Positions 2,169 to 33,819 of a stretch of 33,819 nt of DNA are shown here, piece after piece. The position numbers and the translations under genes were made by a program. Each line of letters begins with the position of its first letter. Position 1 is the stretch's first letter. The DNA comes from Hydrurus foetidus. Its lineage: Eukaryota. The stretch lies in NCBI GenBank assembly GCA_900617105.1, contig UYFQ01000298.1:1-33819 (forward strand), in the 5' to 3' direction. The notes below the pieces were generated by a model. It made no database searches. It was given only the letters and a program-made list of their open reading frames with translations, and was not told the origin of the DNA.

Positions 2169-2187
2169 AGAAAAAGATAAGTGGGGG
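2169..2187 (+). promoter_or_regulatory. Polypurine tract of Gypsy A copy 1
   Basis: AGAAAAAGATAAGTGGGGG ending 3 nt before the LTR start; near-identical tract at 29102-29121 on the minus strand. Confidence 0.85.
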
Positions 2188-2190
2188 TGA

Positions 2191-2397
2191 TGTGGTCGGA
2201 CCGGCTATACCGGGCCTACGGGCCGTACCGGACCTTGTCCCGATCCATCCGATCCTACCGCCTACTGTACACATACATCTCTAGCGCAGCTGCTAGCTAG
2301 CTCTAGCCTACTCGTAGAAGTTATCCTAGCTTCTAGCTTAGAGCCTGTAACTAACTAACACCTTTCCTCTATCGACCTACTTCCTATCTGGACTACA
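2191..2397 (+). mobile_element. 3' LTR of Gypsy A copy 1 (207 bp, TG...CA)
   Basis: TGTGGTCG...GGACTACA; homology with the reverse complement of 28891-29098 ends at this point. Confidence 0.9.
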
Positions 2398-9256: not shown

Positions 9257-9474
9257 TGTGGCCTTGCTAGGTCTCAGGGCAACGGCAGCGGAGGTCTGCG
9301 GGCACGTGGACAAAGGGAAGATGCTGTGGGAGCTATTGCTATGGAAACGATGTGGTTAGCTTACAGGTAAACACAGCAGGTATCATGGCAATGAATCGTG
9401 TGGATCGGATCGTCCTCGATCCGAACCGGACGTACGCCTGTACCCGTACAGCCCGTACGGGTGTTCGGGTCACA
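9257..9474 (-). repeat. 3' LTR of Gypsy B (218 bp)
   Basis: Direct repeat of 20980-21196; preceded on the minus strand by the PPT GAGAGAGAGAGGGG (9478-9491). Confidence 0.92.
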
Positions 9475-9676
9475 GTGCCCCTCTCTCTCTCAAGGGGTGT
9501 AATAACTAACAAAATTCATCATCAAAATACTAACTATGAATAACTAACTAACTAATTGAATAACTATTTCAGACTAAGAACATAAAATTCCTTATTGAAT
9601 AAACCTCCCGAAAATCCTTGAGGATCAAGTTTAGGAGGAATCTTTATGATTTAGTAAATCAATTTGATTTTACCGG

Positions 9677-9978
9677 TTAACGGTAGTTCGCGATGAATTC
9701 GCGTGGTATCAAGTGTTTGAGATTCTTTTTGATTAAGAACTCATGTACTTTTTGCGATTTACGCATGTGTGTCCATGGTTCCCATGTATTGTGTTCATGA
9801 GTACAGTTGAGCCACTTTACATGAAATGTGAGCGATTTGTATGCTCTTATGTTTCCTTTCATGTCTAGGATATCTTCTATGAAGAATTCCAGATAATCTC
9901 TACAAGCAATGTCAGTTGGGTCGACATGTGTACGGTCAAAGTGAAACGGTTTTAGTTGGATCATGTGGTACAACTTTT
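9677..9978 (-). pseudogene. Gypsy B integrase C-terminus and chromodomain (separated from the core by the nested element)
   Basis: KLYHMIQLKPFHFD...FFIEDIL...FHVKWLN....NTWEPW aligns to the family A tail (FVVEKVL...FKVKWLNY....SWEQW). Confidence 0.9.
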
Positions 9979-10231
9979 TAGAGGATACCCGGAGCTCGCC
10001 GGAGGGTAGGATAGGTTCTCTGGACCGGAATTCCAAGTAACCGGGCATTCCCGTATAATCTCTAGTCTTCCATCCACATGATTTATTGTTGAGAGACGCA
10101 AGTCTCACTGCATAGCTACTTTAGATAGAAGCATCACATGTTTTGAAACCTGCGGTCTCGACTTGATTGCAGAGTTTTGTGCACTGCTCCTGCTTGCTAG
10201 TCATTGCAGCAGCGTAGCATGCTTTCATTTA
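9979..10231 (+). repeat. Split direct repeat A1 (253 bp)
   Basis: Matches 14756-15007 apart from one T indel and one substitution near the end. Confidence 0.95.
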
Positions 10232-13200
10232 GAGAGAATCTTTGCGAGACGGAAATGGTCGCGGAATGGGTCCTTTCAGATGACTGACCTACGGAAATGC
10301 CGAGGAAGAAGGAGTTCGCTCTTTCAATTGACTCGAGTAATGGGGTGGAGCCAAATAGCGAATTTTATCTCGGCACAGGATGCGTGTTTGTTATCGTGAC
10401 CTGCTACCTGGAAATGTCGTAGCTCAGTTTGGAGAATTCAGTGAGAAAGCCTTGAAGACGAAATGGAGGCTAATCAAGAGATTTTTCGACCAACTGTGAA
10501 CATTATCTGGGATCCGATACCGACCAATCGATGCGATTACCCATCGTCGATCAACCTCAGAGAGTACTACAGTTTAGAAGACAGCAGCACCGATCGAAAG
10601 ATGAAGATCAAGGTCGGAACCGCAATTTTGCGATGGGTTCCACACTCAACATCAGCTGCATTTTGTCAGTAATTTTATCGCACTATTCGAGGACTCTTTC
10701 TCTCGCTAAGGGGACGTCCCGCTTGCTCTCGCCATCGACCTGGCTGGAGATGATGCCAGCGAGAGTAGCCGATTCGAAACTGAGTACAGATTTAGTCAAC
10801 GATACATATGTTGTAAGTAAAAAGCAGATTCGATCCCACGACCCCCACGAACCTTTGATACTACGAGGAGTCCACTAGACCGCTAAGCTATGTGCGCTCG
10901 CGTGTGTTGAGGAGGAATATTATCGAAACACAAAGTTATCTAACTGAATGAAATAAAATAAAATAAAATAAAAAATTTGTTAACATAAAAACAAATAATG
11001 GTTGTAATTAGAAGGGAGATCAAGCAAAAATGCAGGGAGGTGATCAATTGAATGATAAATGTGCGAATAACAGAGAAGGAATTGAACCTCTACTAAAATC
11101 GCTTCATAAGAGGAATACGGAATATTATATAACTTTCTGTACTCCATACGAAATATGGGGTAATATTCCGTCACACTCCGATTTTTTTTGAAAACATTTC
11201 TGGACGTTCTCAGACACGTAGAAAATCATGATTAGCTGCTCAATCCGACACAAAGCTTCAACAGTTCCTCTCAATTAAATCAAAAATAAATAAATAAATA
11301 AATAAATGAAATCGTGGGTTGAAAAATAGAACAAAATGAAAAAATAAAATAAATGAGAGCGATTAAGTAGAAAATCAAGCAAGATACAGGAAGGAAATAA
11401 ATTGAACAGTAAAGAAGCGAATACGGAGGCTATATTCTGCTTTAATCACTGCACTTCTTATATCAAAGGTGCAATGAAATAGTTCGTCGAAGGAAAGAAA
11501 GAAGTAGTGGTTCGTTTTAGAATACGGAATATCATATGATTTTCTGTACTCAATACGAAATTCAGGGTATAATTTCGTCTCTGTCCGACTTTCTGGACTC
11601 CTTTGGAACATTAATGGATGATCGTAGACACAAGGCGATGAGATATCCGGGGTGTCATCGCCAGTGGTGGGTGTGCTGCTCGCGACAGCTTAGAAAAATA
11701 AAGATGATTGCACCAGAGCGGCACTGTACATGGAGGCAAAAAGCATTCTAGTACGATGAGAAGGCGGCTACCCGGTACAAGAAGACAAGAACGGATGCAC
11801 CAGAGCTGTACTTCCTACGGAAATATTCTTCTCTGTCTAGAAAGATGTGAAGGAGGGGGCTATCCTTGCGGAGGCTGCGAAAAGAAGTCCAACCCTGGTG
11901 ACGGTGCCGCAGGCAAGCGCGTCCGTTTGTTGGCTTACACGGTATGGCCCACCGGTTGTCTAATTATCAGGGCGTGCAGCGGACAGTGCTTCATCGCGGT
12001 GCACATCAGTGCAGCATGATGCAACACGGGCATGTCAGTAAAGCCCACTGCAGAGTAGAGTGGAGACCGCGTACCCGGAGATGGTTTCCGAGGAAAGACC
12101 GTCCCCTAAGGGGATTACCAACGAAGACTCCACAATCATGTCCATCGCTAGGGGCAGTAAAATTTTGCAGTAACGAAGATGAGTCCCTCGGGAGTGATGC
12201 ACAGTCCACCCTGGGTCTGATTGCATTGCAGAATTGTGTGCAACACAACACACTTTACATGCGGTGAGGTGTGGCGCAGTGCGGTGTAGCGCGACAGTGC
12301 TGTGCGGCTAGAGACTGTGCCATGCGACAGTGTATAGAACTATGCCGTGAGGTGTAATGCTGTGCAGTTCGACGATGTACAGGACGGGCTGGTTTGAATT
12401 CGCCCTCAAATCTCTAGGTCAAGTACATGACAGGCACTCGGACAGTCTGTCGCAATGTATCCCGTCGAGAAGGCAGCACCACAGTGAGCGGCGCGCAAGA
12501 CATTGTCTTCTAGGTGAGAGTGTATTGTTATAAGGAAATCGCAAGCGATCATGATAGTGATAAGTTGATTCGAACTTACGGCACCATGGTGTTGGTGGTG
12601 TGCGTATGCGTTGATGCTTTGTGGATTCAACACGATTAACCGATGTTGAATCCACACCCTGCGTAAGCAAAGAATGATGAGTATCATTTGAATGCGTACA
12701 ACATAGCAGTGATGGGTGTGACTGTCTGTGCATGTGTGACAGTGGCGTCTAGTGTATACTGTAGCCACTGTGCCTTGAAGGCGCAGCGCGGGCTGAGTAT
12801 ACACTATCTGAGGCGATGGAGCCGAAGATAGTAGACTGTCTTGGTGGGGCAGTCTTCACATGCGCAAGAAACAGCCCCATAGTGTTGTTTGGTGTGTTAG
12901 TTATGGGTGTGACTGTCTGTACATGTGTGATGAAACAGCCGGATGGTGTGGTATGTACTGTCTGTAGCCGTGTGGCTACAGAAAAAGCATTGGCCCAGTA
13001 CATGCTGCGACGGCTGGTTTCACTTGTGCAAGAAACAGCCCTGTAACGTATTAATGCAGTCTATGCACCTGTAACAAGCTTGATATGACAAGCCTCTGAT
13101 TGTACTTGTGTTATAGCACCTTGCACTGTCTACGGTACCTGTGTGTAACCGTAGAAAAGGCCCGACTGTCAATGTGAATGACAGTCCTGCCGTCAAATTG

Positions 13201-14493
13201 GCGGTAGAAAGCTCAGTGCATTGTATGTGTGTGTGCTATAGCCGCGTGGTATACTGTAGGTGTCAGTATACCACGCGGCTATAGCACTGGTAAGGGCGCA
13301 AGCACACGAGTGCGAAGCCCTTACCATAATCATATAAGAGAGCGGAGACTCATCATACCCGCACCAACATCACTTCTCAGAAATAAAGCGCGATGGTCGA
13401 CCGTCTCCGCAGATGGGCTGGCACATGGGCACGTTGAACCAGCACGAGGTGTGACAGAGGGCGCTGAGGTGTGGGGGGTGTCAGCGCATGATATCTAGAA
13501 ATTGAAAAATAAAGATGTCGAGAACTCTGGCCGGCGTCGTCGACCAGACGTACTGCAACCTCAGGGTCACATTGACGACGTACTGGCCTTTGGTGAGAAG
13601 TCAAAGGCCATAATAAGTTTAAAAAATAAAAATAAAAATGGATGTATCAGGAATGATAAAGGAGAGAAAAGGTAGACCCAATGAACGGGAGAGATCGTAT
13701 CCGGAATGGTCCGATTTCAGGCAAAGGATGGCATATCTGGCGAGCATGTTCTAGTGTGACTTAACCGTCCAAATCGGAGAGGACAGGAAGAAATGAAGTG
13801 GAGGGATGGATGTATGCTCGAAGAAAAACGATCTTAGATTCGTAGTCGGGGCCGCGTGTGGATCCAACAGCTTGCAATTGGGAATGCAGCATGCAATGTC
13901 GCTGTGCAGTGCGGTGCAGTAAGTGCAAACAGAGTAGTGAAGTGCAGTGAGATAGTCAGTGCAGTGCGGTGTACAGTGCAGCAGTGCGAAGTGCACAGAG
14001 AAAAGCAGTACAGTGAAGTGCAGTGCAGCGGTGCTTAACACGATGCTGTACAGTGCAGTACAGAGAGATGCAGTACAGTGTAGTGCCGCAAAGTGAAGTG
14101 CTAGTGCGTGACAAATGTTGGAGTAGCCCATCGTAGTCTCTTAGTCAAGAGGGTGAAGCTACAACGAGAATTATGGTAGCTGTGCGTGACAGGCGATCCA
14201 GCCTGGATTATGTCAAGAAATGAATACGGGCAGATAGGAGTAGGGTCAGAGCAGACTTGCTTAGGCAAAAGGTCGCAAGAATGGTCTCCCGCCAGATTGC
14301 TTCAGTGCGCATTTTTACAGAAAGAGGGGTGAGGTGCATCATTCCCATGCGCATACCGGGTGCCAATAAGGATTATCACGGGGACAGAGGGAAGCACGCA
14401 GCGGGATCTCAAGATATCATCACCCGAGCATGGTAGCGAGGAGACCGCTACCAACAGCATCAAGATAACCAGCAGCGCCCTAGGTTGTGGTGG

Positions 14494-15340
14494 GTGAAGG
14501 GCTTATCTGGGTCCAGGATCCATCCTATGCCAGCGCAGCCGACTGAGTCGGTGGCTACGCGGATAGGGTGGGCGGGCACTGGCAGGCGCGCGAGTGACGC
14601 CACCTGTAGGACAATCCAGTTACTTAATTATTAATTCAGAGTCCGATATCATCTGTACCTTATCGGTTTGAGGGTTATCTGATATGCTAATACCGCTAAC
14701 CGGAAGGTACGGTATCATATGACCGGGCAGCGGCCGGAATGCAGTGGAATAGAATTAGAGGATACCCGGAGCTCGCCGGAGGGTAGGATAGGTTCTCTGG
14801 ACCGGAATTCCAAGTAACCGGGCATTCCCGTATAATCTCTAGTCTTCCATCCACATGATTTATTGTTGAGAGACGCAAGTCTCACTGCATAGCTACTTTA
14901 GATAGAAGCATCACATGTTTTGAAACCTGCGGTCTCGACTTGATTGCAGAGTTTGTGCACTGCTCCTGCTTGCTAGTCATTGCAGCAGCGTAGCATGCTT
15001 TTATTTACCCCGTAGCCAACCATGCCTATTATAGATTTTTTGTAAACGTGTTTTGTCTGACCGCACGTGCGCCAGCCAGTGAAGGGCTTATCTGGGTCCA
15101 GGATCCATCCTATGCCAGCGCAGCCGACTGAGTCGGTGGCTACGCGGATAGGGTGGGCGGGCACTGGCAGGCGCGCGAGTGACGCCACCTGTAGGACAAT
15201 CCAGTTACTTAATTATTAATTCAGAGTCCGATATCATCTGTACCTTATCGGTTTGAGGGTTATCTGATATGCTAATACCGCTAACCGGAAGGTACGGTAT
15301 CATATGGCCGGGCAGCGGCCGGAATGCAGTGGAATAGAAT
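14494..15340 (+). repeat. Split direct repeats B1 (14494-14755), A2 (14756-15007), 71-bp spacer, B2 (15079-15340)
   Basis: B copies are 262 bp with one substitution seen (catatgAccgg / catatgGccgg). Confidence 0.95.
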
Positions 15341-18158
15341 CTTTGTGTGTTACCAGATCGAGTAATGTATACTCTGCGAAGTTATGACTTATAACTCGCA
15401 TTGGGCCACGCCACAGTGTGTGCATGCGTGTTTCTGGTGTTGTTCTTTTTTGCACGAGCACAAATGTGTCGACTCCGAACTGTGTGACGTTGGGAGGTTG
15501 TTGTGCATTGTGCAAGTCGTCGGATTCCTTGCGTAGACGTGCGGTGATTTCGATGAGTTCATCTTGCAACGTTAACATTTTATCAGTTGACCGTGTGAGT
15601 GAGTCGAAATATAAATCAATTTCATACCTCGGAAGGAGGATGTTTGCGTCGAGGTCGATCGCGTTGCCGTAGATGAGTTGTGCCGGAGACACTTTCATCC
15701 GGTCATTTACGGTTGAATTTAGTATTCTTTGTACAAACGGTAATATTTCTGCGTAGTTTTCCGTAGTTGCCCGTTCGTATGCGTACGCGGTTATATGGCG
15801 ATTGATTTCTTTGTTGATACGTTCGACGATAGCGTTTTCTTCTGAACAGTATGGTAATATTTTGTTGTGTGTTGTTCCAAGAATTTTCACAAACTCATCT
15901 ATGATGTGGCTTGCGAAGTGGGGTCCATTATCTGATCGAAGTATACACGGTGAGCGGTATCGCCCCACGTGTTCTACAAGTGCTGTGCACGCTGATTTAG
16001 CTGTTGCATCAGGTGTTGCGTAGAGTTCGACAAACCTTGAGGAAGTGTCGATCATAACAAGGATATATCCTTTATCAGGGAATGGGCCAATGAAGTCTAT
16101 GTTAAGGCATTCCATTGGTTTATACGTTGACGTTGTGTATCTGTAGGCGTTGATTTATTTCATCGCCGACATCTTTTCGCAACAAGGACAATTTTTTACG
16201 AATGTTTTCACTGCGTTACGCATTCCCATCCATATGTTATTTGTTTTCTTTAAACTTTTCTTTAAAAACGTAAGTTTTTGTGGTCTATTAGGATTGTGAA
16301 TTTACGATCTCGCAGCAGTGCGTCGAGATAAGTACAGCAATAATATAGCGCGAAGGCTTCTTTTTGTATTACTGACCATTTCAGTTGAGTCTTGGTAAGA
16401 GACTTGCTGACAAGAGCGACGAGTTGTTTTTCTCCGTCGACTTCTTGATACAAATAGCCGCCGATCCCGTAATCCGACGCATCGGTCATAAGGGTTATGG
16501 CCGCTGTATCGTGTATGAAATATAATAAAGGACTCCTTGCAATATGATCTTTTATCTTTTGAAAAGAATTTGCGGCGTCATCTGTCGAGATTAGCATCGA
16601 TTGCTTTTTCGCGGCGTGATCAATCATTTTATGTGTCTGCTTTTTGTGAACCTAATCTTGCTAACATTTGTTTAATATTAGGGATTGGCCAGCTTGCTGA
16701 TTCCGTTGCGTCGTTGAGGTGACGATAGTCAATACAGAATCGGTATGAACCGTCGGGCTTTGCCGCAAGTGTTACTTGCGAATAGTATGATGCCTCTATG
16801 TTGTACCCTGTTCAAGCATAGTTTCAACTTGTTTGCGGATTTCGACTTGTTTTCGTGTAGACGTTGGTCTGGGTGCCACGCGGTTTTTGAAAACTTTCCA
16901 CTCTGGATCCCGTATGGGTAGTCCAAAGGGGGGAATTCGCGCGGGCTCTGGTCCGAGTTTGTTGTTGAATAGCTTTATGTGTTTAACACAAATTGCTTTA
17001 ATTCTTGCTTTTTGTTCAGGGGCACCATCGATTTGTATTAGATCGATGAGGTACATTTTGTCCTCTGTCGGATTGTCTTGGAAAGGAGCGAAGGTATCCT
17101 TCGACTTGTAGTCAATCTCTTCGGGTCCGAAGGGTTGAACCTCTGGGAGTTCTTCACGCTCCCGGAGTAGAGCAGCAACTAAACCACGTGTTTGGGCTGG
17201 TGCCTTGGATGAGGGAGTAGGAGTAGCTACTTCCGGACTCCTGTCGGTTGTTAGACCTAAATCACCTTGTCGGGGAGGTGACAACAAAACTGCTGCCTCT
17301 ACCGTAGGGTGCAAAATGAACTCATCAGAATCTAGCCTAGCCGCTGCCGCAGCTAAGCTAGTGGGACACCCACATGAAGTAGTGCATGTCTTGCTTGTAC
17401 AAGCACCTCGAGCCACCAGGTCGTCTTACCATCGACTGTCTGCGTCTGAGGGTTTTGTCCCCTCCAGGCTAGTTATAACCGGAGGTAAGGTTGGATCTTT
17501 AATACTTGTGACTGTGTCCGACTCTGCTTCTAGCAGGAGTGGAACGTCCACTTGATTTATCACCATGTTTGTGGACTGGTCGAGTTTTTGTATTTTTGAC
17601 ATGTGTGTCATGTTTTTTCTGTTACTACGTTTTCTGGATTTTGGAGGAATTCCGGAATAAGTTTGACAAAATTTAATTTTCTAATAGTCTGTAATCCTAA
17701 GATTAAGTCGACTTTTGAATCTTCTGCAATTCGCACCGGAAGAGAAAAAGTGTGTTGATAAGAGTTTTTTTAAATGATACAATAATATCAAGCACACGTG
17801 TTGATTTAATACATTGGTTGTTTAAACCCGAGCACATCCATAAGGGAGTGTCTGTTGGGCGCAGGTGGGGTTCGCCCCGTAGGTCCCGGAGGACTATACG
17901 GTTGATTACGTCCCCGACCTGGCATCCGGTGTCGATTTGGGCGAGTGCGTCGATTCCCTCACTTTGGGGCGTACTTTGAGGACGACGAGGATGAGGAGGA
18001 GCTAGCATTGGAGTCTCGGTCGCGGTTGGAGAAATCTCTGTCGCGGTTGGAGACGTCTTTCTCTTTTTCCGTGTTGCGCGAGTCGTCTTTGCGGCTGGAG
18101 TCGCGGTCGCGACTGTTGGAGTGACTGTCGTTGCGATGGTTGGGCTGGAAGTTTGCCA
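15341..18158 (-). pseudogene. pol: Gypsy B pol remnant: protease, RT N-terminus, RNase H, integrase core; RT core and RH-IN linker deleted
   Basis: AQIDTG (~17930); YRFCIDYR (~16730); jump from GSQKADT to MIDHAAKK at ~16630 removes the YxDD region; TDASDYGIG; CLNIDFIGP, SDNGPHF, ENAIVERINK. Confidence 0.92.
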
Positions 18159-19833
18159 TCAGGTCTGTGGAAGAGATATGTGTACTTGTAAGTAATCCTC
18201 TATATTTTCAGGCAGTACTGCGGAAAGTAACATTTGCATGGTGGGTGTGCTGCGACTTTCGTCGAGGTTTTTCACATGCATAGCGGTAAGGTGTAACTTA
18301 CTTTTGCCTTTGTAGTTTGAGTTTGCGTGGGAACCACTTGGCTTGTTGCCACACTCGCTGTTGCGATCGTCTGACTGACGATCGTTGTTGCGGTTGTTGA
18401 ACTTATTGTTGTTGTTGTTGTTCTTGTTCTTGTTGTTGTTGTTTGGGCGGCGTGGGTCCTGGGTCTTAGGAGGTCCCATGTCCATCTCAACGTCGTCGAC
18501 TGGGTAGACGAACGTCGACGCACCCGGATAGTTTGTGAGGTGGGTTTTCTCGTTGTTGACATAGGTCTCGTGTTTAAAGTGGGAATGCCCGATGCGTTTG
18601 AAATCCTGCCCAATGGAAGAAGTGTTCCATGTGGCGTGGGAGCTGTTGCAGTGCGGGTTCATAAAGAGCGGACAGTTGTACCGATTATGAGTTGTCATTC
18701 CGCACGTGTGACATACGTCTGTTGTTCGGCTAATGCCTTCGTTGTCGGGACGACGTTTGGGAATGGTCTTGTATGATGCGGATAGGTCAGTGGACGCGGA
18801 TGTGGACAGTTGGGTATCGGGATCTTCTTAAGGGGGAAGCTTGGTGGTGAAGGTATAGCTTAGTCCCCCCATCTTGTCAGCGTCCGTAACTGTCTCGCGT
18901 GACGCTTGGAGACAGATGACAAGACGGGCGAGCATTTCCCTGATGTTGTCCTTTTTCCTTTCTTTGGCTGCCACTTTGGTCAAGTCCATGAAATTTTCAG
19001 TGAACTTGTTGCCTGGTGGGAGCTTTTTGTAGAATATCTTGCAGATATCGTCCTGGCGATCAGTATCGATGTTGTCATACTTGTTGTAGAACCCCAGGAT
19101 AATGTCGCGGAACGCGGCGATGGAAGTGTGTTCCAGTGCACCGTTCAGCCAACTGAATTTGAACTGAAATTTCCTCAGTTTGAGGTCGACGTCGTATGTG
19201 GATTGCGTACGTCTGTTAATGAAGTAGATTGTTTTAAGATCTTCTGCCATTTCTTTCAGAGTTAGCTCACCATCCGGTAACTCTGGCCACGTCATACATT
19301 GGGCGGGGGTGTAGCTGACGAGCTTCGTATTTTGCAAGAGTCCATCACGAATGGTGTCGAGTGCCTTATCCAGCGACTGCCAACCCGCGCTGAAACCAGG
19401 ACGGTGTGCCTGTTGGTAGGACAGGCGGGCGGACCCGTCCATGTCCTTCAACAGTACGTCCCTACCCATGTAGGACGCCTCCTTCATGTTGAAAAGGGAG
19501 GTCGTCATGTTTTGGTGACGCGGGATTTGGTTACGTTGGGGTTGTTCGATGCCCGCATCTTCTGTTTTGCGTTTGCGTATAGGGTTCTCCACGGCCTTCG
19601 GTTTCGAAGCCGGGACCTTTTTCGCTGGTGCTTTAGCAGTGCGTTTGGCAGGTTTGGCCGTGCCTCTTGAGGGTGGTTGCTCTGGTGTGGGTTTGACTAC
19701 TCGGGGGGAGCGTCTTTTGGCAGGTGATTTGGCCTCTGCGGGCTTTTGGGTGTCGGGTTTGGCTGTGAACGGATCTTCGGAGTCGGACGGGACTTGACTA
19801 CCTTCATCCGATGAGGGTTCGTTGTAATTTTCA

Positions 19834-19880
<47 letters not shown>

Positions 19881-20344
19881 TTCCTCACCGGTTTCCTCCT
19901 CCCTGCCCTCCTTGTCTGATTCAGGGTGGGAGTCCGATGTCACTTTGCCGTCGGCTGTTTGATCGTCCTTATCGCCGTCTCCCTCCTCGTCATTCTGTTG
20001 GGTCGGATTGCCACCTTGGTTTTCCTCCTTGTCGATGTTGTCGAGGTTGTCCGGTGATAAGGTGGCGGGTTCACGGTGTGAAACGACCTCGCCAGTGATC
20101 GACATGAATTCGGAAAGACTTTTTCCTTTTCATCTGTCTCGCCCTCCAATATGGAGAGACGTTTGCGCTCTGCTATGCGCGTGTTATGCCTCTTGGCTTG
20201 TTTTGCCTTGTGGGCTTTTTGTTCGTCTTCGATGCGGCTTTTAGTGTCTGTAGCCTTGATGGCTTTTTGATGAGCGCCACCGTCGAAGCTGCGATATTTT
20301 CCTCGCATCGCCTGGCGACTTTTTTGAGACGTTCCTTTTCCCAT
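17959..20344 (-). pseudogene. gag: Gypsy B gag with acidic tract, CCHC zinc knuckle and Asn-rich region; candidate intron 18165-18301
   Basis: ORFs 18828-20105 and 18159-18698 are in one frame, separated by an in-frame TAA; CHTCGMTTHNRYNC = CX2CX4HX4C; (GAGGAC)n coding repeat at ~19835-19880. Start codon uncertain. Confidence 0.8.
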
Positions 20345-20979
20345 TTGAGGGTCAGGCGTTCATCACCTAGAAGCGAAGAGTTGAAGCTGACCGAGCTAGA
20401 GCTCTGTTTCTTGTCTTTTTGGCTCCATCTTGAATTTTGGTCGGGACTTATTTTGATGGAACTGAGCGTCTTCGACAGCGACGGAACTCGGACGCGGTGA
20501 TTCAGGGAAATTAGGAGTAGGTTCGTCAGGGATGGAGACTGGTAGGTTAAGAGTGTGGCAGTAGAAGTCAGGGGGATTGGATTACTTTCGTGCGATTTCG
20601 GGAGGAAATCGCGTCGAAAGTTGGGAGCGTTGGACGGCTTCGTGGGCAACGAAGTTGGGCAGGCGCGTTGGAGCTTTCGTTTTAGAAACGATTTGTATGG
20701 TTTCACTTGCTTGCAAATTACTCTCTTTCTTCAGCCTTCGTTTTCTGAAGAGCTCGAGGAGATGTCGTCGAAAGTCGTCGGGACGAACTTCTAAACGAGG
20801 GCGTTCTGGAGGCTGTCGATTTGACAGAGTATTTCTAGTGTCGTTAGACGTTGTTTTCACTTTAAAAAGTTACTCGCTTTCGCTTGGCACGACTGTTCGA
20901 CGGTCGTGGCAAGGATTTTTTTGTTGATTTTGGCAACTGGTCTCTGAAGGAGATCCTAGTTGGTTCCAAATACCGGTAT

Positions 20980-21196
20980 TGTGGCCTTGCTAGGTCTCAG
21001 GGCAACGGCAGCGGAGGTCTGCGGGCACGTGGACAAAGGGAAGATGCTATGGGGCTAGTGCTATGATAGTAATGTGTTTAGCTTACAGGTAAACACAGCA
21101 GATATCATGGCAATGAATCGTGTGGATCGGATCGTCCTCGATCCGAACCGGACGTACGCCTGTACCCGTACAGCCCGTACGGGTGTTCGGGTCACA
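20980..21196 (-). repeat. 5' LTR of Gypsy B (217 bp)
   Basis: Direct repeat of 9257-9474. Confidence 0.92.
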
Positions 21197-21458
21197 GGGG
21201 GCTCTCTTCTACCCAGAGGGATTCTCACACTGGTCCCGCCTGATTTTTGAAAAAATGAAATACCCTGAAGCGATCAGCGGTTTTGCATATGCAGTTGGCA
21301 TGTGCATTTGGCATTTGCATTTGGCATGTGCAGTTGGCATGTGCCGTTACAGCAAACAGGAGCACAATTTTCATCCAGCAGTCATACACAGGTAGGAGCC
21401 AGTCCCAACTTTACAGCACATTCTTATACTTCGGTGATTAAATATTCCCTCCGACGTC

Positions 21459-24260
21459 ATGAATTCATCGGGAATTAGTTTCGAAGCATTCCTTCAATCA
21501 GAAGGCATCTATGAGAAAACGATCGAAGAATTGTATGATTGTGAAATTATCTTCCTTGCACGTGAAAGCATTCATGTTGCATTCTTCGTACACTTTATGG
21601 CAGATGAAAAATCTTGGCTGGCATTTCAGAAGATTTTATTCGATCTCGTGTCATCATATCTTGAATCCTACAGCAAAAACGTCTCGTTGACCCAAGGTGA
21701 TATAGAGAAACGAATGAAATCTGGTAAAATTGTGGTTACTAAGTTTGAGCAAGACCGAAATGTTTCGCGCGGAATATATGAAAAAAAGTTTCTTCAGTTG
21801 CCCTTGATTAAGTCTCTATTTGATGAGCCGCAGAACGATGAAATCAATCGCAGTATTAATGAACAGGGCCGTTTACTTTTCTGCTATTTAGAAGACCTTT
21901 CCTAAAAAAACTTCTGGACTTGGCATCATCAAAACAAAGGACTGCATGTTGACAACTTTATCACTGAAAGGGCGTCTGACATAAACTTTGACTATTCGGA
22001 GACCATGTTGCATAAAGTTTACGATATTACGGGCTATTTATGTGGTCATCGGATTTATAACCTTATACATTTAAATAGATTGAGACAAGACTACGTTGAA
22101 ACTTTCCAGAATTACCGTATTTTAACCCTTCACGCAAACGGCAATGATGCTTTAGCTCATAATCTTCCGGTCTTATGTATTTCATTTCGTGAACATTCGG
22201 AGGGACTTTATTATTCCAAAGCTGATAATTTTAATTTTATAAAAATTGTTCAAGGCATTTGGATGCAGTCATTGACAACAGATGTTTCAATACTCTTCAA
22301 TGCATTCGAGCCAGTTAAGCGCGTACATAAAGTCATACTAAATTCAAAAAATGTTCAACTTGCATTCAAGAAATTTATGTTGCAGGATTTATTTAAGGAA
22401 AACATGAACCTTGCAGATGACGAGAATCCGATATCTTTTCTATTTCAGTTTATCATAAATGGATTTATTCGAACGCACGTAAGAGACATATATATATGTT
22501 ACGACTTTCTAATGCTCTACTTAGCAAAACAGGCGCCTCTGGTATTAGGACAAATTTGTCATCATTCAGTGCGAAATCAGTTGCACTCAAACAGAATACC
22601 AATAATGTTAAGCTTCTTACCAAAAATGTATCCAACGACTTAGTTAATAGTCAACAAGGTAATCGATCGTCATCCTCGTTATCCTGTCCTTGCGGGAAAG
22701 TTTTTGTACGCGCGTCATGGTTTGAGAGACATGCATTAAATTGCAATATATCTCGTAAGATTGTATCACCTTTAGATCAAGAATCCGCAATAATGGAAAA
22801 TTTGATTGGTATGAATTATTTTGATCAGACATTCCAGAAATTGGAAGGACACACAGCAACAGGATTAATCCAGATACAACTTATTTCAATAAAAAATTAT
22901 ATGTTAGTTTTTTTTTATTCTAGAGTATTTGGAATATTTAATTTTATCTAAGATTTCTAATGTGTTATTTATATTTCATTTGTCAACAGGTCCGAATGGT
23001 AAGCCTGGCAGGAGGTCAGCTAGACTACTGTGTTTATCAGTGTTTTAATACATCAATGACGTCTTTGGATATATATACAGCACTAAGAGAAGTATTGATT
23101 GCAACAGCAACATTACAATTCGACATTATAGCAATAATAGCTGATGGAGCACAGTGTAACCGACAGTTTCAAAAGAAATATTTCACCGATGGAAATAGCG
23201 ACTATTCACATATGAAGCACCCAATAACTCATCAGCCTATTTATTACATCTCTGATCCATCTCATATGATTAAAAAAATTGTATCGAGCTTATCCAGTAG
23301 AAATAGAAATATATTTAAAACTGTCGACAATAAAGACAGAAGGGTATCTCTAACAGTCATGTTCGAACTCTGGATGTCCTTTAATGATAATTTAGGATTG
23401 AATAGTTCAAATTATTCAAGACTATTGATTTTCTAAAGAATTCTTTCCAAGGTATGAGAGTTGGGCCTTGTATAAAAGTTCTGGGACCTAAAATGATTGA
23501 GATGATGATAGACTTAGCTTTACTATACAAAGAGGAATACAAAATTTTCAATAATAACAAAGAGAACGAAAATAAATTGAATCCTTACGAATTCTGCAAA
23601 GATGCAGACTTGTATTTAGGATGGCGTGAAGCATCGCAATATTTCACAAATCTTTTCAATATCTTAAATTCTACTAAAAATAGACTCAATACAACAAATT
23701 ATTCTGAAAATTATCAATTTCTAATAGAATTTCAAAAGTAGTTTACAAATTGGAAGATAGAATGCATCGACAGAAAAAAAAAGAATTGCCTGCAATTCAC
23801 ACAGCCTATGAAGGAATGACTGGATTCTGTACGGCAGAGGCAGCTGAGGATTGCCTATCTATGATTTAAAGTTTGAATAACAACACTGGTGACTATTTTT
23901 TCTTTCTACCCCGCCGCATAAGTCAAGACTTAGTTGAAAATGCTTTTTCAAAAATTCGAGTCGCGATAGGCCACGGTAGATTGGACCACATTACAACGTT
24001 TAATGTGTGTACAGAGGTAAGTATGATAAAGGAAGTTAAAATAAGTGAATGATCTTCAAAGAGAAGGAATGCAGTGGGTGGGCAAATTTAAAAAATTAAT
24101 TCAAATAAGGATTATTTATCTTATGATGACATGTAGAAAAAATAGCTTCAAAAATCGCAGTGTAATTTATGAAAATTCAAGTAAACTCCTTTGGAAAATT
24201 GTGAATGGTCTTAAAATGATAGAAAACAAAATGCAAAATTTAAGTCGTGATCACAATTAA
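21459..24260 (+). pseudogene. P-like transposase gene B: YxxGY-type domain, C2HC finger, then catalytic second half
   Basis: YDITGYL...EGLYY (22020-22215); CPCGKVF....FERH...C (~22685-22745); probable intron 22903-22989; IIADGAQCNR (D at 23143), YISDPSHMIKK, MRVGPCIKV, RRISQDLVENAFSKIR (E at 23936). Several frameshifts and stops. Confidence 0.8.
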
Positions 24261-25492
24261 AATCACATATGCATACATACAAAAAAAAAAAGCTAAATTC
24301 AAAAACGAGTGTGTACAACAGAGTAAAAAAAGTAGTCACATCAGTCGTATACGTTATCAACACGTAAATGAGAAATTAATGAGGCGTCAAATTCATTTTT
24401 CTTCTATCTTCATCTGTTTCTCTGCATTACGAAAAATAATTTCGCTATCCTTTCCAGGGTATTCACCCAATTCTTCAATGTCTATTTTCTTTCTTTGCAT
24501 CGTCAGACTTCAAATCATAAAAGTCTTGATAAATTTCGTTTTTAATTCCGTGAGGAGCAATTTCTGCTAATCCGAACACTCTACTCCTTGTAACAGAATA
24601 TATTATACCATTTGTAATAATCATATCATCTATAAGAAGTGCTGAATGTTCCTTACTAAGTTTACCATCTAATCTTGCAGATCTAGATGCCATCAATAGA
24701 TTATTCAGTTGGAGTCCAACCTCACAATTAAAATTTGATTTGTATCTATTATAATAAAAATTAGATTGATTATAAATGAAGGTTTTTAATTGATTTAAGA
24801 TGCATTCTTACTTTGTTAAGGTTGACCAACATGGTAAGGATCTAAGCGTGGCCTCCTTCTCGTAGTTTACTTTTCCTAGATTGTGTGCTAATTCCAGAGA
24901 GTAATTTAGGATTCTAGAAGACAACTTCACTGTTCGAATTCCTCTTTTGTTACCGATTTATTATAATTGCCTAATTGCGATGTTTCTGATCTAATTAATT
25001 CTTTGTGTAATAAGAATTTTTCAAAATCTCCTTCATGTTCTTTCTCTATAAGTTCATCTTTAAAAGTATAAAATTTAAACCATTTATCAGATTCCTGGTC
25101 ACTAATATTTATGAAGGCTTTTTTATCGTGCCCAACTTTACGCCATTGGGCAACTGCTGACTTCAGATCTTTGCATCAAGACTTCCAGTAAGAAACTTTT
25201 TTTCTTAACTTATTCATTATTTTCTTTTTTTCTATTAAGATCTTTTCATTTTCAACCGCTAATTGTTGGTTTTTCTTTTTCAATTCTTCAAAACTATTTG
25301 AACTTTTTTAAAGTGATTTATTATGTTCACTCAGTAAGACTTTTTTGTTTGGCTGCAAACCTGTAAAATTTCTCCAGAAAATTCTACAAGATGCACATAC
25401 TGATACATCACTGCTACCTGCATCGCATCGGATAAAGCATCCCCAATTCTGCATATGATATTCATTAAATTTGTCATTATTCTTGAATAATA

Positions 25493-26236
25493 CCAGTGCC
25501 GGTAATAACGCGGTTTCGGTAAAAACGCGGTTATTCGACCCGGCAGGTCCGATATCTCTCCAAATTCTTCATGAAAAAGTTTTTGTCAAACATTCTCACA
25601 GGTAATTCGATAGTTTTACATTCGCTTCGATTATTAAAGTTTTCTGAAATTGATGATTTCATCACGAGATCGACATTAGTCACTTCTGGCGATTCACCAA
25701 TGTCGGATATAGATGAAGCAAGAGTATGCTTTAGTTATTCTATCTTGTAGGCAGTAGTCATATTATTATGGACACGCGAGGGTTTCGTACAAATCGCGAT
25801 AGTCACTGAGATGCATCAGTTTCAGAGACCAAAAATGTGCCTTTTTAACGTATTCGGGATGCGATTTCCCAATATTTCGACGAAAAAGGCACATTTTTGG
25901 TCTCTGAAACTGATGCATCTCAGTGACTATCGCGATTTGTACGAAACCCTCGCGGATTCATAATAATATGACTACTGCCTACAAGATAGAATAACTAAAG
26001 CATACTCTTGCTTCATCTATATCCGACATTGGTGAATCGCCAGAAGTGACTAATGTCGATCTCGTGATGAAATCATCAATTTCAGAAAACTTTAATAATC
26101 GAAGCGAATGTAAAACTATCGAATTACCTGTGAGAATGTTTGACAAAAACTTTTTCATGAAGAATTTGGAGAGATATCGGACCTGCTGGGTCGAATAACC
26201 GCGTTTTTACCGAAACCGCGTTATTACCGGCACTGG
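25493..26236. mobile_element. Foldback element FB2 (744 bp, 354-bp inverted arms, 4-bp TSD AATA)
   Basis: CCAGTGCCGG...CCGGCACTGG; spacer 25847-25882; AATA at 25489-25492 and 26237-26240; removal with one TSD restores the gene A frame (SPSALLFKNND). Confidence 0.92.
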
Positions 26237-26549
26237 AATAGTGCACTTGGGCTCGCAGCAGCAACTATATATTCTAAAAATAATCTTTTTTTCATTCTTG
26301 GTAAGATAAAGCCAATGAAAGTACTATTTTTTTTAATCGTACTTGCATTATCAAGTAGTACACACAATTTTGTACAATAATTTGTATTTCGATTCTCGTC
26401 ATTAATTAATATATTTAAATTAGTCCGGCATTCTTCAAAGTGCCATATCTTTAAGGGAGATAAAAAAAATCCGGTGCACTTGGAAACCTAAAAAATAAAA
26501 ATAACATTATGAAACACCGATAATAACACGCAGAAACCATAAACAACAT

Positions 26550-28133
26550 AATAAGAAGTACACGCGCATCATTGATGTTCTGCTACAATGCACTTTACAT
26601 ATATATCTCGCACCTCATTTGATATCAAAGCTTGGTGAGGAGTGCTTGGGACCTCAGGGCTGACCCAAAAGTAGGGGGGAGAACGTACGTGTACCTACAG
26701 TATAATGCACTAGATGTAAGCTACTAGAAACACAATAAGAAGTACACGCGCATCATTGACGTTCTGATACAATGCACTTTACATATATATCTCGCACCTC
26801 ATTTGATATCAAAGCTTGGTGAGGAGTGCTTGGGACCTCAGGGCTGACCCAAAAGTAGGGGGGAGAACGTACGTGTACCTACAGTATAATGCACTAGATG
26901 TAAGCTACTAGAAACACAATAAGAAGTACACGCGCATCATTGACGTTCTGATACAATGCACTTTACATATATATCTCGCACCTCATTTGATATCAAAGCT
27001 TGGTGAGGAGTGCTTGGGACCTCAGGGCTGACCCAAAAGTAGGGGGGAGAACGTACGTGTACCTACAGTATAATGCACTAGATGTAAGCTACTAGAAACA
27101 CAATAAGAAGTACACGCGCATCATTGACGTTCTGATACAATGCACTTTACATATATATCTCGCACCTCATTTGATATCAAAGCTTGGTGAGGAGTGCTTG
27201 GGACCTCAGGGCTGACCCCAAAGTAGGGGGGAGAACGTACGTATACCTACAGTATAATGCACTAGATGTAAGCTACTAGAAACACAATAAGAAGTACACG
27301 CGCATCATTGACGTTCTGATACAATGCACTTTACATATATATCTCGCACCTCATTTGATATCAAAGCTTGGTGAGGAGTGCTTGGGACCTCAGGGCTGAC
27401 CCCAAAGTAGGGGGGAGAACGTACGTGTACCTACAGTATAATGCACTAGATGTAAGCTACTAGAAACACAATAAGAAGTACACGCGCATCATTGATGTTC
27501 TGCTACAATGCACTTTACATATATATCTCGCACCTCATTTGATATCAAAGCTTGGTGAGGAGTGCTTGGGACCTCAGGGCTGACCCAAAAGTAGGGGGGA
27601 GAACGTACGTGTACCTACAGTATAATGCACTAGATGTAAGCTACTAGAAACACAATAAGAAGTACACGCGCATCATTGACGTTCTGATACAATGCACTTT
27701 ACATATATATCTCGCACCTCATTTGATATCAAAGCTTGGTGAGGAGTGCTTGGGACCTCAGGGCTGACCCAAAAGTAGGGGGGAGAACGTACGTGTACCT
27801 ACAGTATAATGCACTAGATGTAAGCTACTAGAAACACAATAAGAAGTACACGCGCATCATTGACGTTCTGATACAATGCACTTTACATATATATCTCGCA
27901 CCTCATTTGATATCAAAGCTTGGTGAGGAGTGCTTGGGACCTCAGGGCTGACCCAAAAGTAGGGGGGAGAACGTACGTGTACCTACAGTATAATGCACTA
28001 GATGTAAGCTACTAGAAACACAATAAGAAGTACACGCGCATCATTGACGTTCTGATACAATGCACTTTACATATATATCTCGCACCTCATTTGATATCAA
28101 AGCTTGGTGAGGAGTGCTTGGAACCCCAGGGCT
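26550..28133 (-). repeat. 184-bp tandem array, 8.6 units; each unit is a 103-nt intron plus an 81-nt exon of gene A
   Basis: Unit starts 26551, 26735, 26919, 27103, 27287, 27471, 27655, 27839, 28023; only a few substitutions between units. Confidence 0.9.
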
Positions 28134-28890: not shown

Positions 28891-29098
28891 TGTAGTCCTG
28901 ATGGAGAAGAAGATGTGTAGGAGAGCGGGTTGTGCTTAGGTTACAGACTATGCTAGAAGCTAGGTAACTTCTACGAGTAGGCTGCAGCTAGCTAGCTAGT
29001 CGTGGTAGGGCTGTATATGTACTGTAGGCGGAAGGATCGGGTGGATCGTGACAAGGTCCGGTACGGCCCGTAGGCCCGGTATACCCGGTACGACCACA
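28891..29098 (-). repeat. 3' LTR of Gypsy A copy 2 (208 bp)
   Basis: Reverse complement is homologous to 2191-2397; TG..CA ends. Confidence 0.9.
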
Positions 29099-29382
29099 TT
29101 TCCCCCACTTATCTCTTTTTTGAAGAAATCTAATCTATGACGCGACCACCACGTTTAAAATATAATAACTAACAATAACTAAGGAAGGAAAAGAAAATCT
29201 AACAAAAACTAAAAATGAAAAATTTTATAAAGAATATTTACAAAATGGAAACTGTGGTGGGTCGGTCGGCGAGAATAGTGGTGCCTCGATACGTAATTAT
29301 GTCAGATTTTTAGTGACTAAAACCATGAAACCTCCATCGAGGGAAAATTTGGAAAAATCTTCAAAAGATAATACGTTCGAGA

Positions 29383-32300
29383 TCAGTCTTCTAAGACTGA
29401 TGCCTCAAGATTCTTGGGGATTAAATGTTTCATTTTATTGTCCCTCAAGTATTCATGGAGTGCTTCACAAAGCCGTAGGTTTTTCCACTGCTCCCATGAA
29501 TAATGAGTGTCATCATAATTAAGCCATTTGACTTTGAATGACATTGTCGTAGGCTTCTTTTTGTCACCTGAGTGACTAAGAACCTTTTCCACTACAAATT
29601 CCATGTAGTCACGACGAGCAGTGTCAGCAGGTACATCGACCTCTGAATCATAATTAAATTTTTTTAAATTTTTAATATGTACACTTCGCTCCTTGTGTGT
29701 GACAAGGTTTGCGAGGATATACTCGGACCCTTTGTAGGAAATAACACGGTACTGGCCATGCCACGTAGTGTGTAACCGAGTAGGCGGTCGATCTGTGTAA
29801 CGACATAAAACATATGTCCCTATAGGGAACACTGTCGCACACTTAGCTGATGCCGCGTGTTTAGCGTCTGCTGACACCAAAGCTTGAACAGCTGAATCAA
29901 GGACCTTGTCCTGAACGCTGATCAAGTCCTCAATGTATGTTGACCTAGAATGTGTATTCACACTTAAGTGTGGTGTTAAAATACCACGATTCAAGTCAAG
30001 CTTGTTTCCGAACAGTAAATGTGGGGGCGCAACTTTAGTGCGTCTATTAACTGAACTGTTAATGATGCGTTGCACAATTGGGATTGACTTAGCATGTCCC
30101 TCTAGGGTCTGTTTATCAAAAACACGACCTCTTAGGTGTCTATTTACCTCTTTGTTGACTCTCTCAACAATCGCATTTTCCTCTTTCGAGTATGCGAGGG
30201 TTAAATTATGTGGCGTACCACAAAGATCTAAAAAATCTTTTATTAAATCATTTGCGAAATGGGATCCTCGATCCGATCGTATCATGTTTGGCGAGCCGAA
30301 ACGGCCAAAATGAGAGAGTAGGCAGTCGGCCGCTGATTTTGCGTCTGCATTTGCACACCAAAATAGTTCAGTCCAACGTGTGAACGTGTCGATAATGACA
30401 AGGGTATAACCTTTGTCTGGGAATGGACCGATATAGTCAACATTCAGCGTATCGAAGATAGCATAATTCGACGTTGCAAAGTGAGTAGCATTGCTTTTGA
30501 CAACACGGACAGTTCTGTATGAACGTACGTACATGTTGTTTCATGTTTTTCCAAACTTGTTGTAGACTGAACAACCGAGTAAGGGTACGATCTACACCGT
30601 TGTGACCAACAAACGCATTGTGGCACATTTGGATGTATTCTAACTGATCGTCTGACGCTGGGTCGATAGCTGTCAAAGCTGACACAGTGACCGACGACGA
30701 CGAAGTTGGAAGTAATTCCAATTCCGTTATTCGTAACGGTAATGCGATTTCTGTCAAGTTAGGACATAATCGCGACAATGCGTCGGCTAAGGCATTTGAC
30801 GTGCCAGGTACGAAGACAACCGTAAAATGAAGTTCTTGCATAGCAATGAACCATCTTGCTACCATTGAGGTAGGGTTTTGTTTCATATACGTGATATTCA
30901 AATGATCAGTATAGATTGTGAATGTACGATCTCTGATTAAGTAATCGAGTTGTGTACAACAGTAGAATATAGCATACGCTTCTTTCTGTATAGTTGACCA
31001 CCGTATTTGTGTTGGTGTCAATGATTTGCTTATAAAAGCTATCGGTTGCCAAATGGTATCAACCACTTGGAAAAGGACACCGCCGATTCCAAATCAGACG
31101 CGTCTGTATATAATCGGATATCCAATTTATTGTCATCAATGAAGTACATTAATGGACAACGAGATATCGCGATCTGTGTATCGTGAAAGCTGTTGGTACT
31201 CGTTTGAGTCCATACAACGGCCGAACGTTTCGGTGCAGAATGATCTATCATATCTTGCATTGGTTTAACCAAAGTCGAATGCATAGGTACAAACTGTCGA
31301 AAATAGTTCGCTAATCCTAAGAATGATCTTAACAAAGTTAAGTTCTTAGGTATAGAAAAGTTTAATACTGTTTCTATTTTTTCTTTTGACATGGATAAAC
31401 CATCTTTGTCAACCACTCTGCCAACGTATTCAATACGAGGTAAACCAAAGCGGCATTTCTTTGCTTTGAGTCTAAGACCCTTAAGTCTGAATCTTTCAAA
31501 GACTTTATTCAAGTTCTTTAGAAACTCTGCTTCACCCTTGCCATATACTATGCAATCGTCGAGATACATCTCACAACAATGATAGATAAGGCCATAGAGG
31601 ACCGCCGTTACCATCTGCTCTTGAAAGTAAGAGGGGGCACGACACGGACCAAAGGGTAGTCTCGTGAACTGAAAAACCCCCGCAAAGCATATAAACGCTG
31701 TGAATATGCGGTGTGCGGGGTGTAACGGTGCTTGATGGTAACCCGCGGTTAAATCCATCACACCAAAAATATCCGGTTTTTTATTACCGATCCTCTCAAA
31801 AAGATGTTTGATATTCGGCAGGGGAAAAGAGGCGGGAGTCAGGCACTTATTAAGTGGCCGGTAATCGATGCAGGTTCGAAATTTACCGGGTGACTTAGTT
31901 ACGATTACAGGATGACTGTAATAAGCAGCATCTGACCGCTCTATAACCCCCGACGCAAGCATCTCATCGAGATTCTCCTTAAGAGCAACCTCCTTAGTCG
32001 ATGACTGGGGACGTACCGGCGTACGGTTTTCGTCTTTTTCCCACAACTCAAGGGGATGTTAATCTCAAAAGGTTTGAGTGACGCTGGTTTCTCAGCTAAC
32101 TGATCACTAAAAATGTCTGAATATTCAGAACAGAGCTCTCGGAGCTTCCTCTGAAAGCTTTCATCTCCCTCAAAGGTAATCTCGTTGAGGAAATCCTCTG
32201 GCCCTTTGGGCAAGTCATCTTGACTAGGTTTCTCAGCTAAGAAGGGTGCGAACGTGTCTATCTTGCCATCGTCAATCTCGTCAACTGAGAGTGCGACACC

Positions 32301-33819
32301 ACTGGGCCATAAAGGCTCAGTGACATAGTCTAAGGTATCAGAATCCCCAAAGGTATGTGTAAGGGTGGGAATCTGGTCGCCACCTAGGTGCGGTGTATCA
32401 CCCGTACGTTTTGCGAGAATAGTAGTGACACTATTCAGTCGCTCACAACTTACATCACCACAGGAATTTTGGGTCGCGACTCCCTCAATATCCTTTTGGG
32501 TATCGTTACATGTCGACATTGAATGGACACAGGAGACGTTGCTCTTCGAAGAAGATTGACCAAGCAAAACGCTCTTCTTATATGGGTACTCTTGTACTCC
32601 ATATGTAACCCTCTTTTTAGAGGCAGGTTTACCGCCTGGATATTTCAGCTTGTCATAATGAGGCGTGATAGACTCGACTTCAGCTGTATCTGGTTCGGCA
32701 CCCAACGCTATCATTTGACGCGTATACTTATGTTGATACATGGGATCAAGTTTCAACAAAGCTTCCTTCTTATCGAAGTCGCGTTTGCGCGCATCGCTTT
32801 TCTTTTTGTTCTCCGCGCTAAGTTCTGGCGATATGCCGAAAGCAAACGGAGTCAAAGACCAAAAATCATACTTATTTACCGTCTTACGGCTAAACAAAAT
32901 TTCAATTTCGGTTTTTCTATTAACCCTCATGGGTAAGCTGATGCTCTGGCATTCGCCATCGTAAGAATGAAAAAGGATTTTTAAATCGCAAATTTCGTTA
33001 TTTACATAACATTGACCATCGAGGCCGCTACAAACAGTGATAGCTGTAGGAGCGGGGTAACAAAGGTGAGTGGCATTTAATTTTTCTAACATAGTAAAAG
33101 AAATAAAATCCTCCGAGTAATTCGCGGTGTCCAGCACGGCTCTTCCAACGGCACGCAGCTCGCTTGCTGGGCCAGTCCTATCCTTATCCTGCACGATAAC
33201 AGTTACGTTGAGGTGATGAGAAGGAAGGACAGATGGATTATGCAAAAATTCTTCACGAATAGTTACATGTGGCTGTTCTTCAACATGACTATCCATCAGA
33301 TTATGGGAATCATTGTCAAAGACAGCAGCCACGTCATCAGAATAAAGGTTCTTACCTTGATCCTGACCTGAACTGGAGGAGGAGGGAGGGTTGTTTCCTT
33401 GTGGGGGTTGTATTTGTTTCCCCTGCCACCGGATCCACGACCCTGGTTTTGGTTTGCATTGGGGTTGTATCCTCCCCTCTGCTTACCTCTACCCCCTCCA
33501 TGGTTGCCATGGTAACCACCTCCCTGGTTACCTTGGTTTCCCTGGTTTTGGTTATACCCCCCTTGTCCCTGGTTGGAACGATCTGAACCACCAGAGGCAT
33601 TGGGGTTGTTACCGCCACCATGGCTGTTTTTGGGGCGCTTGTTGTCGTTAGACATCAAGTAGGGTTTAGAACCCTTAGGGAGTAGCAGAACGCGATCTTC
33701 GTACCCTGGGAGTACGAGATGTTGTTGCCATTCTGCAAACCCTACCGCTGCCCAAGCCATACCCAATGTAGAATCCTCCCAATCAGCCGAATGGTCTGTA
33801 TTGGAGTCGGAGTAATACA
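29383..33819 (-). pseudogene. pol: Gypsy A gag C-terminus and pol (PR, RT, RH, IN, chromodomain), near intact
   Basis: G/N/Q-rich gag tail; VLDTAN; FRTCIDYR, MDLTAGYHQ, LPFG, YLDD; YTDASD; HNGV...CPCC; SDRGSHF, ENAIVERVNK; chromodomain. Three 1-nt slips and one ~23-nt deletion. Confidence 0.95.

Follow-up and report, generated by a model that had tools for sequence, protein, structure and literature searches.

We found that chromodomain Gypsy retrotransposons of one lineage carry an optional intron where gag meets the protease, and this intron is both real and conserved. In the window, that is, the whole 33,819-nt stretch of DNA analyzed here, it occupies positions 33189 to 33355 on the minus strand, lies wholly within the gag-pol coding sequence, is 167 nt long (3n+2), and interrupts the pol frame in phase 1. 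The best explanation, which we hold with good confidence, is that these single-ORF elements splice part of their transcripts to yield Gag alone, while the unspliced RNA serves for Gag-Pol and as the genome.

The element carrying the intron (element A) lies on the minus strand and is truncated inside gag by the window end. What is left of gag is its 3' part with a G/N/Q-rich end (33356 to 33819); the capsid and the CCHC knuckle lie upstream, as seen in relatives. There follow a retropepsin-like aspartic protease (32802 to 33212), with its catalytic Asp codon (DTA) at 33131-33129, and RT, RNase H, integrase (zinc finger and core) and chromodomain (29383 to 32058), in three ORF pieces with frame breaks between them. 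The protease had no Pfam match; a model of the segment 33251-32802 (mean pLDDT, 87.7) resembles the RSV protease 2rsp (E 1.1e-4, probability 1.0). Downstream of the protease, Pfam returned RVT_1, RT_RNaseH, Integrase_H2C2, rve, and Chromo, and the same region was recovered by tblastn with P0001, which, like P0002, is a complete single-ORF Gag-Pol polyprotein (1793 and 1788 aa, respectively). A polypurine tract starting at 29121 and the beginning of a 3' LTR-like region (28940 to 29121, minus strand) recur in a partial copy that lies inverted at the beginning of the window (551 nt, 71% alike). This copy (1-2350, plus strand) comprises the 3' part of a related element, with RNase H, integrase, chromodomain, polypurine tract, and LTR start, and is 71-92% alike in DNA.

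The domain order GAG-PR-RT-RH-IN is that of Ty3/Gypsy LTR retrotransposons; membership in Ty1/Copia was rejected, as integrase does not precede RT. The initial annotation had called the lineage chromovirus-like. A chromodomain is indeed present at the integrase C terminus (PF00385, E 9e-11), but beyond that the label is unsupported, since, according to two studies, some Gypsy lineages with a chromodomain in stramenopiles are not chromoviruses and can be separate (PMC12477816, PMC5348765). The oomycete chromodomain Gypsy element Chronos, described as carrying, in addition to the Gypsy RNase H, one of archaeal type (PMC5348765), was considered and rejected: no second RNase H family was found in P0001/P0002 at E up to 1, and about 58 residues separate RNase H from the integrase zinc finger in these proteins. 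For the gag region outside the window, we turned to P0001 and P0009, in which Gag lies upstream of the protease and zf-CCHC scores above the cut-off (at 327-342 in P0001). Their Gag model is similar to retroelement capsids, the best being a Copia capsid (Z 8.8, rmsd 6.3, 153 aligned), Foldseek gave no match for it at E<0.001, and a Gag atlas search returned unnamed zf-CCHC and Retrotrans_gag clusters. In the nearest full relative, the capsid-like domain and the CCHC knuckle all lie upstream of the donor.

The intron begins with a GTAAGA 5' splice site (33350 to 33355, minus strand; GT at 33355-33354) in the context CAAG/GTAAGA, the hexamer being identical to the donor of the first intron of the Mo25 gene in the same window. 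It ends with a CAG (33189 to 33191, minus strand), which in the pol frame is the Gln codon closing the first protease strand. This predicted beta strand (33192 to 33212, minus strand; model residues 14-20, block pLDDT 92) is coded by the final intron codons, and Pol is therefore predicted to require intron retention. Past the intron, a TAA (33184 to 33186, minus strand) overlaps the Asp-Lys codons of the pol frame and would become the Gag stop upon splicing. The initial annotation had given exactly this donor, acceptor, length, phase, and strand, and the retained frame DQGKNLY...VIVQDKD running into protease was likewise as it had described. Its description of the acceptor as pyrimidine-rich was too generous, as pyrimidines make up only 11 of 20 nt (0.59 over 22 nt), but a 60-nt AG-free zone does lie upstream. 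No canonical CTRAY branch motif occurs within 60 nt of the window acceptor, only CTCAT and CTCAA; most relatives have one. Past the donor, alternative acceptors exist at 33273 (CAG, 83 nt, 3n+2, 7/20 pyrimidines) and at 33086 and 33044 (in frame, with strong tracts); no joint to any of the three was found in the RNA contigs. Taken alone, the donor motif is weak evidence, because AGGTAAG occurs 7 times on the two strands of the window. What makes it more than chance is that the RNA joint matches the predicted ends exactly, together with the conservation described below.

Sequence variants fit the reading frames on either side. Changes fell on third codon positions in 5/5 cases in the Gag frame upstream, in 5/7 in the pol frame within the intron, and in 20/26 in the protease (39 of the 40 listed rows used, out of 172 rows in total). 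Among these 40 listed rows of 172 (from X5, X6, X8, and X9), none affected the splice dinucleotides or the TAA, and the next Asp codon (33180) varies.

Contigs from four RNA-labelled runs (X1 to X4), of which X2 is a freshwater metatranscriptome, were compared with the window at 80% likeness. One X2 contig, with 30 letters on its short side, skips exactly 167 nt (33189-33355); the ends read CT..AC on the plus strand and thus GT..AG on the minus, and the exact position of the joint is ambiguous by 3 letters. The junction 33356/33188, proposed beforehand as a check, was thus found at the predicted ends, albeit in a single contig of depth 4 from one study, and at 80% likeness the joint may for that reason stem from a related organism or from error. 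Unspliced molecules are represented by X2 record 15, which crosses the acceptor, and X1 record 7, which crosses the donor; unspliced contigs in an RNA library may be DNA. No 167-nt joint was seen in X1, X3, or X4, the last two of which do not cover the intron. Nor was there one in X5, X6, X8, and X9 (3311, 2656, 38, and 5 records, respectively; library kind not on record), and as contigs show presence and not absence, this weighs only slightly against DNA copies that lack the intron. A second X2 joint (33189-33435) skips 245 nt, with the acceptor end common within one base and ends that are not GT..AG as placed; it may reflect an alternative donor in a related subfamily. At the protein level, none of 27 cluster members or four checked matches was a Gag-only protein with its end at the junction.

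Distant relatives were collected with a protease-core pattern blind to splice sites, whose spacing is fixed in 40/44 proteins. The pattern retrieved 2 metagenome and 6 genome-collection stretches, and a profile search of their four assemblies gave 17 matches; viral contigs had no match to the pattern, and an alignment search with the close family found none in metagenome or viral contigs. Twelve of the resulting 25 loci were left out: 6 were duplicates, 4 lacked the protease motif, 1 extended only 12 nt upstream, and in 1 (L001) the frame could be followed upstream for only 69 nt before it broke. The four assemblies (G001 to G004) are labelled bacterial MAGs and yet hold these 17 matches to a eukaryotic Gypsy protease (L003 to L025), which are therefore likely on eukaryotic carry-over contigs. 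In the region L003:1100-1200, the retrotransposon fragment is separated by a short tandem repeat from the rest of a 137-kb contig, at whose end it lies, which suggests a chimeric join.

The 13 relatives kept have proteases 19-39% identical to that of the window and at most 70% identical to one another, and in all 13 the frame is open across the junction. In 8/13, a phase-1 GTAAG is present 60-300 nt upstream of the catalytic Asp, the background being 0.129 per interval in other parts of these ORFs (binomial P 5e-5); in the same interval, phase 0 has one in 1/13 and phase 2 in 0/13. For phase-1 GTAA the count was 11/13 (background 0.42, P 0.002). These P values overstate independence, the 13 relatives being linked by common descent (protease identity between pairs, up to 70%). 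The codon holding the donor GT varies among Cys, Gly, and Ser. At the other end, the Gln run closing the first protease strand holds a CAG in 14/14 elements, the window included, compared to 153 of 378 Gln codons elsewhere, and in 13/14 no other AG comes between the strand start and this CAG. It is preceded by 36-85 AG-free bases (median 53.5), compared to 10 for 151 other in-frame CAGs (P 5e-9, with the same caveat of shared ancestry). Where two Gln codons are adjacent (L017 and L019), their order is CAA then CAG.

An automatic best-donor rule returned, in 11/13 relatives, a GTAA donor and an in-frame CAG 77-101 nt apart (3n+2), with a stop 13-37 nt before the Asp. The conservation of GT/AG and of 3n+2 length, which had been suggested as a test of the intron, is thereby borne out in 11/13 distant relatives. 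The two exceptions, L015 (for which another 3n+2 pair was chosen) and L020 (for which the rule failed), have no GTAA donor but weaker phase-1 GT candidates. The full signature was present at 12 of 56 YAGs near the protease and at 22 of 665 elsewhere; near the protease it occurs in 11/13 elements, all 11 in phase 0 and 3n+2, whereas those elsewhere in the ORFs are in mixed phases. In an RT tree of 51 of 127 RTs, built with one distant outgroup pair and without named chromoviruses, the signature-bearing loci are scattered across the sampled lineage.

Protein sequences carry the same imprint. Among 24 close relatives covering the acceptor, Q-D-K is conserved in 19; 23 have Gln or Lys, whose codons can end in AG, and 22 have Lys or Asn at the position supplying the AA of the stop. 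A wider RT search gave 334 matches, 120 of them listed; after removal of 2 arachnid rows, 118 long polyproteins were left, of which 49 were dropped (25 without protease, 13 starting too near the protease, and 11 without the anchor motif), giving 69 anchored and 45 non-redundant polyproteins. Among these listed matches, Gln stands at the strand end in 39/45 (background 0.29), and [GCS][KE] occurs 9-32 residues upstream in 31/45 (background 0.30-0.39). In the relatives, the shifted frame runs for 4-41 codons past the acceptor before a stop is reached (stop density in that frame elsewhere, 0.097 per codon), and the resulting tails end in Lys or Arg in 10/13 cases, compared to 46 of 295 background peptides. 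Long loops after the strand-end Gln are Thr/Arg/Ala/Pro-rich, a composition that would fit an N/Q/G/S-rich other frame. In one subgroup (P0214, P0224, P0233, P0238, and kin), the first protease strand and the strand of the active site are separated by Thr-rich loops of 55-83 residues, and some members have Lys for Gln at the acceptor; the subgroup holds candidates for the longest dual-coded exons.

The window holds a second, more distant chromodomain Gypsy family (9257-21197, minus strand), with LTR-like repeats at 20980-21197 and 9257-9475; inserts interrupt it (repeats 9978-10231/14755-15007), and part of its RT is missing. From its sequence only, it also bears an intron signature (18165 to 18301, minus strand), with a phase-1 GTAAGT donor, an in-frame CAG, and 137 nt (3n+2). 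A 67-codon N/R/D/S-rich shifted-frame tail ends before the protease Asp at 17933, the pol frame there being a Thr-rich loop. In this copy, the AG-free zone spans only 18 nt, and an in-frame TGA stands two codons past the acceptor.

Several other features surround these elements. A host Mo25/CAB39 gene (5618-7084, plus strand), whose best named matches are from stramenopiles (50-54% identity; closer matches reach 74%), has an 86-nt GT-AG intron (5840-5925) with a GTAAGA donor, followed by another of roughly 450 nt (6469-6921) with the donor GTGCAG. Between a Gypsy LTR and this gene, 3570-5435 contains about 269 copies of a 7-base CCCCAAA-type repeat, which we take to be telomere-like. A tandem array at 26545-28133 has 8.6 copies of a 184-base unit, 99% alike, and near-perfect long inverted repeats at 25490-26239 and 8425-9166 (arms of 357 and 287 nt, 99%) form MITE-like hairpins. 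ORF pieces at 21438-23741 (plus strand), with weak zinc-finger and transposase RNase H-like matches (E about 0.07), possibly belong to a decayed DNA transposon.

Retroelements need far more Gag than Pol. In the mechanism that we propose, the host spliceosome would use the strong donor and middling acceptor in some transcripts, and the spliced RNA would be translated into a Gag with a defined C terminus. The unspliced RNA would give Gag-Pol and be packaged as genome. The splice would act on the Gag:Gag-Pol ratio, its purpose being to supply the surplus of Gag required for assembling particles. The second exon would, in relatives, add to Gag a short basic, sometimes long and low-complexity, tail, coded in a second frame over a protease loop. 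A broader proposal, which we regard as evenly poised, is that a deep single-ORF chromodomain Gypsy lineage (hundreds of clusters, with RTs 49-73% identical to P0001) inherited one such switch: the branch region and acceptor would lie within the first protease strand, and the second exon would be a true overlapping frame giving the Gag-only product a basic or low-complexity tail of up to about 70 codons, the same bases coding for an expendable protease loop.

The window copy itself could be taken to say the reverse. Its Gag ORF (33296-33817) and pol ORF (31941-33482) are in different frames, one base apart at a C run (33403 to 33407, minus strand) that is one base shorter than in relatives. Taken literally, a 3n+2 cut would here join Gag to Pol, the opposite of what the initial annotation had claimed: Gag would end at 33296 inside the retained intron, and gag and pol would be fused either by splicing, as they are in Ogre, or by a -1 frameshift at this C run. 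The presence of the extra base in only part of the contig depth in X5 and X6 would agree with this. However, all depth in X2, X8, and X9 has the extra base, including X8 record 19 (299 nt, one other letter), which spans the region. Furthermore, the near-identical proteins P0051, P0078, and P0042, as well as P0001, run in one frame across the gag/pol junction, as do 13/13 relatives, and the cut would remove the predicted first protease strand. The window copy also has further 1-base breaks in pol, and the one at the C run is either a lesion or an assembly error. This reading is thus largely refuted, and we consider it barely credible. Because the relatives have the extra base and their proteins are in one frame, the frame assumed by the initial annotation is that of the family, and its spliced reading Gln-Gly-stop applies there, although the window copy carries a 1-base break upstream that this annotation had overlooked.

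It is also very unlikely, in our view, that there is no functional intron, the motifs being due to protein constraint and composition and the joint to template switching, a deleted copy, or an assembly artefact. The joint does come from a single low-depth contig with 3 ambiguous letters, the codons of a hydrophobic strand are T-rich by nature, and 22 similar signatures occur elsewhere in the ORFs. But the joint coincides with ends predicted beforehand, the GT-AA is kept while the donor residue varies, CAG is used over CAA in 14/14 elements and comes after CAA in L017 and L019, and the signatures elsewhere are in mixed phases. A less remote, yet still unlikely, explanation is that the intron is real and the spliced RNA unproductive, attenuating the element or feeding host silencing, as happens with a cryptic intron in Tf2 of fission yeast or when splicing stalls in Cryptococcus. 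In the spliced form, the stop is followed by about 4 kb of 3' UTR, which invites nonsense-mediated decay. Moreover, the accessible parts of two reports state that Tf2 silencing needs cryptic-intron splicing (PMC7175516) and that the shGAG RNA of the Arabidopsis element EVADE (EVD) itself sets off silencing (PMC5580714). Against this, the phase and the 3n+2 length are fixed and the tails K/R-biased, which points to selection on a protein product, the cut leaves capsid and zinc knuckle intact, and the lineage is single-ORF with no other visible route to Gag excess. We therefore favor splicing for Gag production.

Such a switch likely works like that of BARE1 and, more loosely, that of EVD, both Copia elements. 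Barley BARE1 (Ty1/Copia) has a single ORF with a 104-nt facultative GT-AG intron at the gag/protease boundary, and its splicing brings a stop within a few codons, giving a nearly full-length Gag-only RNA (PMC3735527). Here, too, a GT-AG intron sits at the gag/protease boundary of a single ORF and its removal leads to a nearby stop. Unlike BARE1, our element is a Ty3/Gypsy (PR-RT-RH-IN-chromo) from a stramenopile-like host, and its intron is conserved in a lineage whose proteases are 19-70% identical; in addition, the acceptor overlaps the first protease strand, and relatives have second-frame tails of 4-67 codons. EVD and other Arabidopsis Ty1/Copia elements use a conserved alternative splice at the protease to make an shGAG mRNA beside the unspliced Gag-Pol RNA (PMC5580714). 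Splicing of the EVD intron eliminates the protease altogether and is linked to early termination, whereas the intron described here is short.

Among Gypsy elements, the accessible text reports no such conserved splicing in Arabidopsis Ty3/Gypsy (PMC5580714), and the one Gypsy Gag RNA of a long-read study in triticale is described there as intron-less (PMC7765848). Host splicing of part of the transcripts is documented for other Ty3/Gypsy elements: in Ogre it joins gag-pro to RT-IN, in CRR it removes RT, and in Bagy2 and Cer1 it makes accessory proteins, the Cer1 exon being in a second frame over gag-pol (PMC3735527, PMC6317226, PMC10309623). A Gag-only mRNA, as we propose for our lineage, is not among the outcomes described for these four in the parts of the sources at hand. 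Tf1/sushi chromoviruses share with our element the Gypsy domain order, the chromodomain, and the need for Gag excess; the accessible text describes for them either a -1 frameshift, or readthrough of a stop, or a single ORF for which no splicing is mentioned (bioRxiv 10.1101/2022.12.06.519325). We found no Gypsy case in the accessible parts of the sunflower shGAG literature, and a full-text search of mainly openly available papers found no report of Gag-only splicing in Gypsy.

The routes described for Gypsy elements in the available text are frameshifting and stop readthrough; single-ORF elements are largely unexplained, and Gag-only splicing is presented as a Copia strategy (PMC5580714, PMC3735527, PMC7765848). 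A conserved splice switch that can be predicted from sequence in a large Gypsy lineage makes the question of Gag excess directly testable, and the relatives would provide a natural series of dual-coded exons of differing lengths inside a protease gene. Such a switch in Gypsy elements would show convergence between the Gypsy and Copia superfamilies. If the lineage did inherit one switch, it would represent an overlooked answer to how single-ORF Gypsy elements obtain an excess of Gag, reached convergently with Copia.
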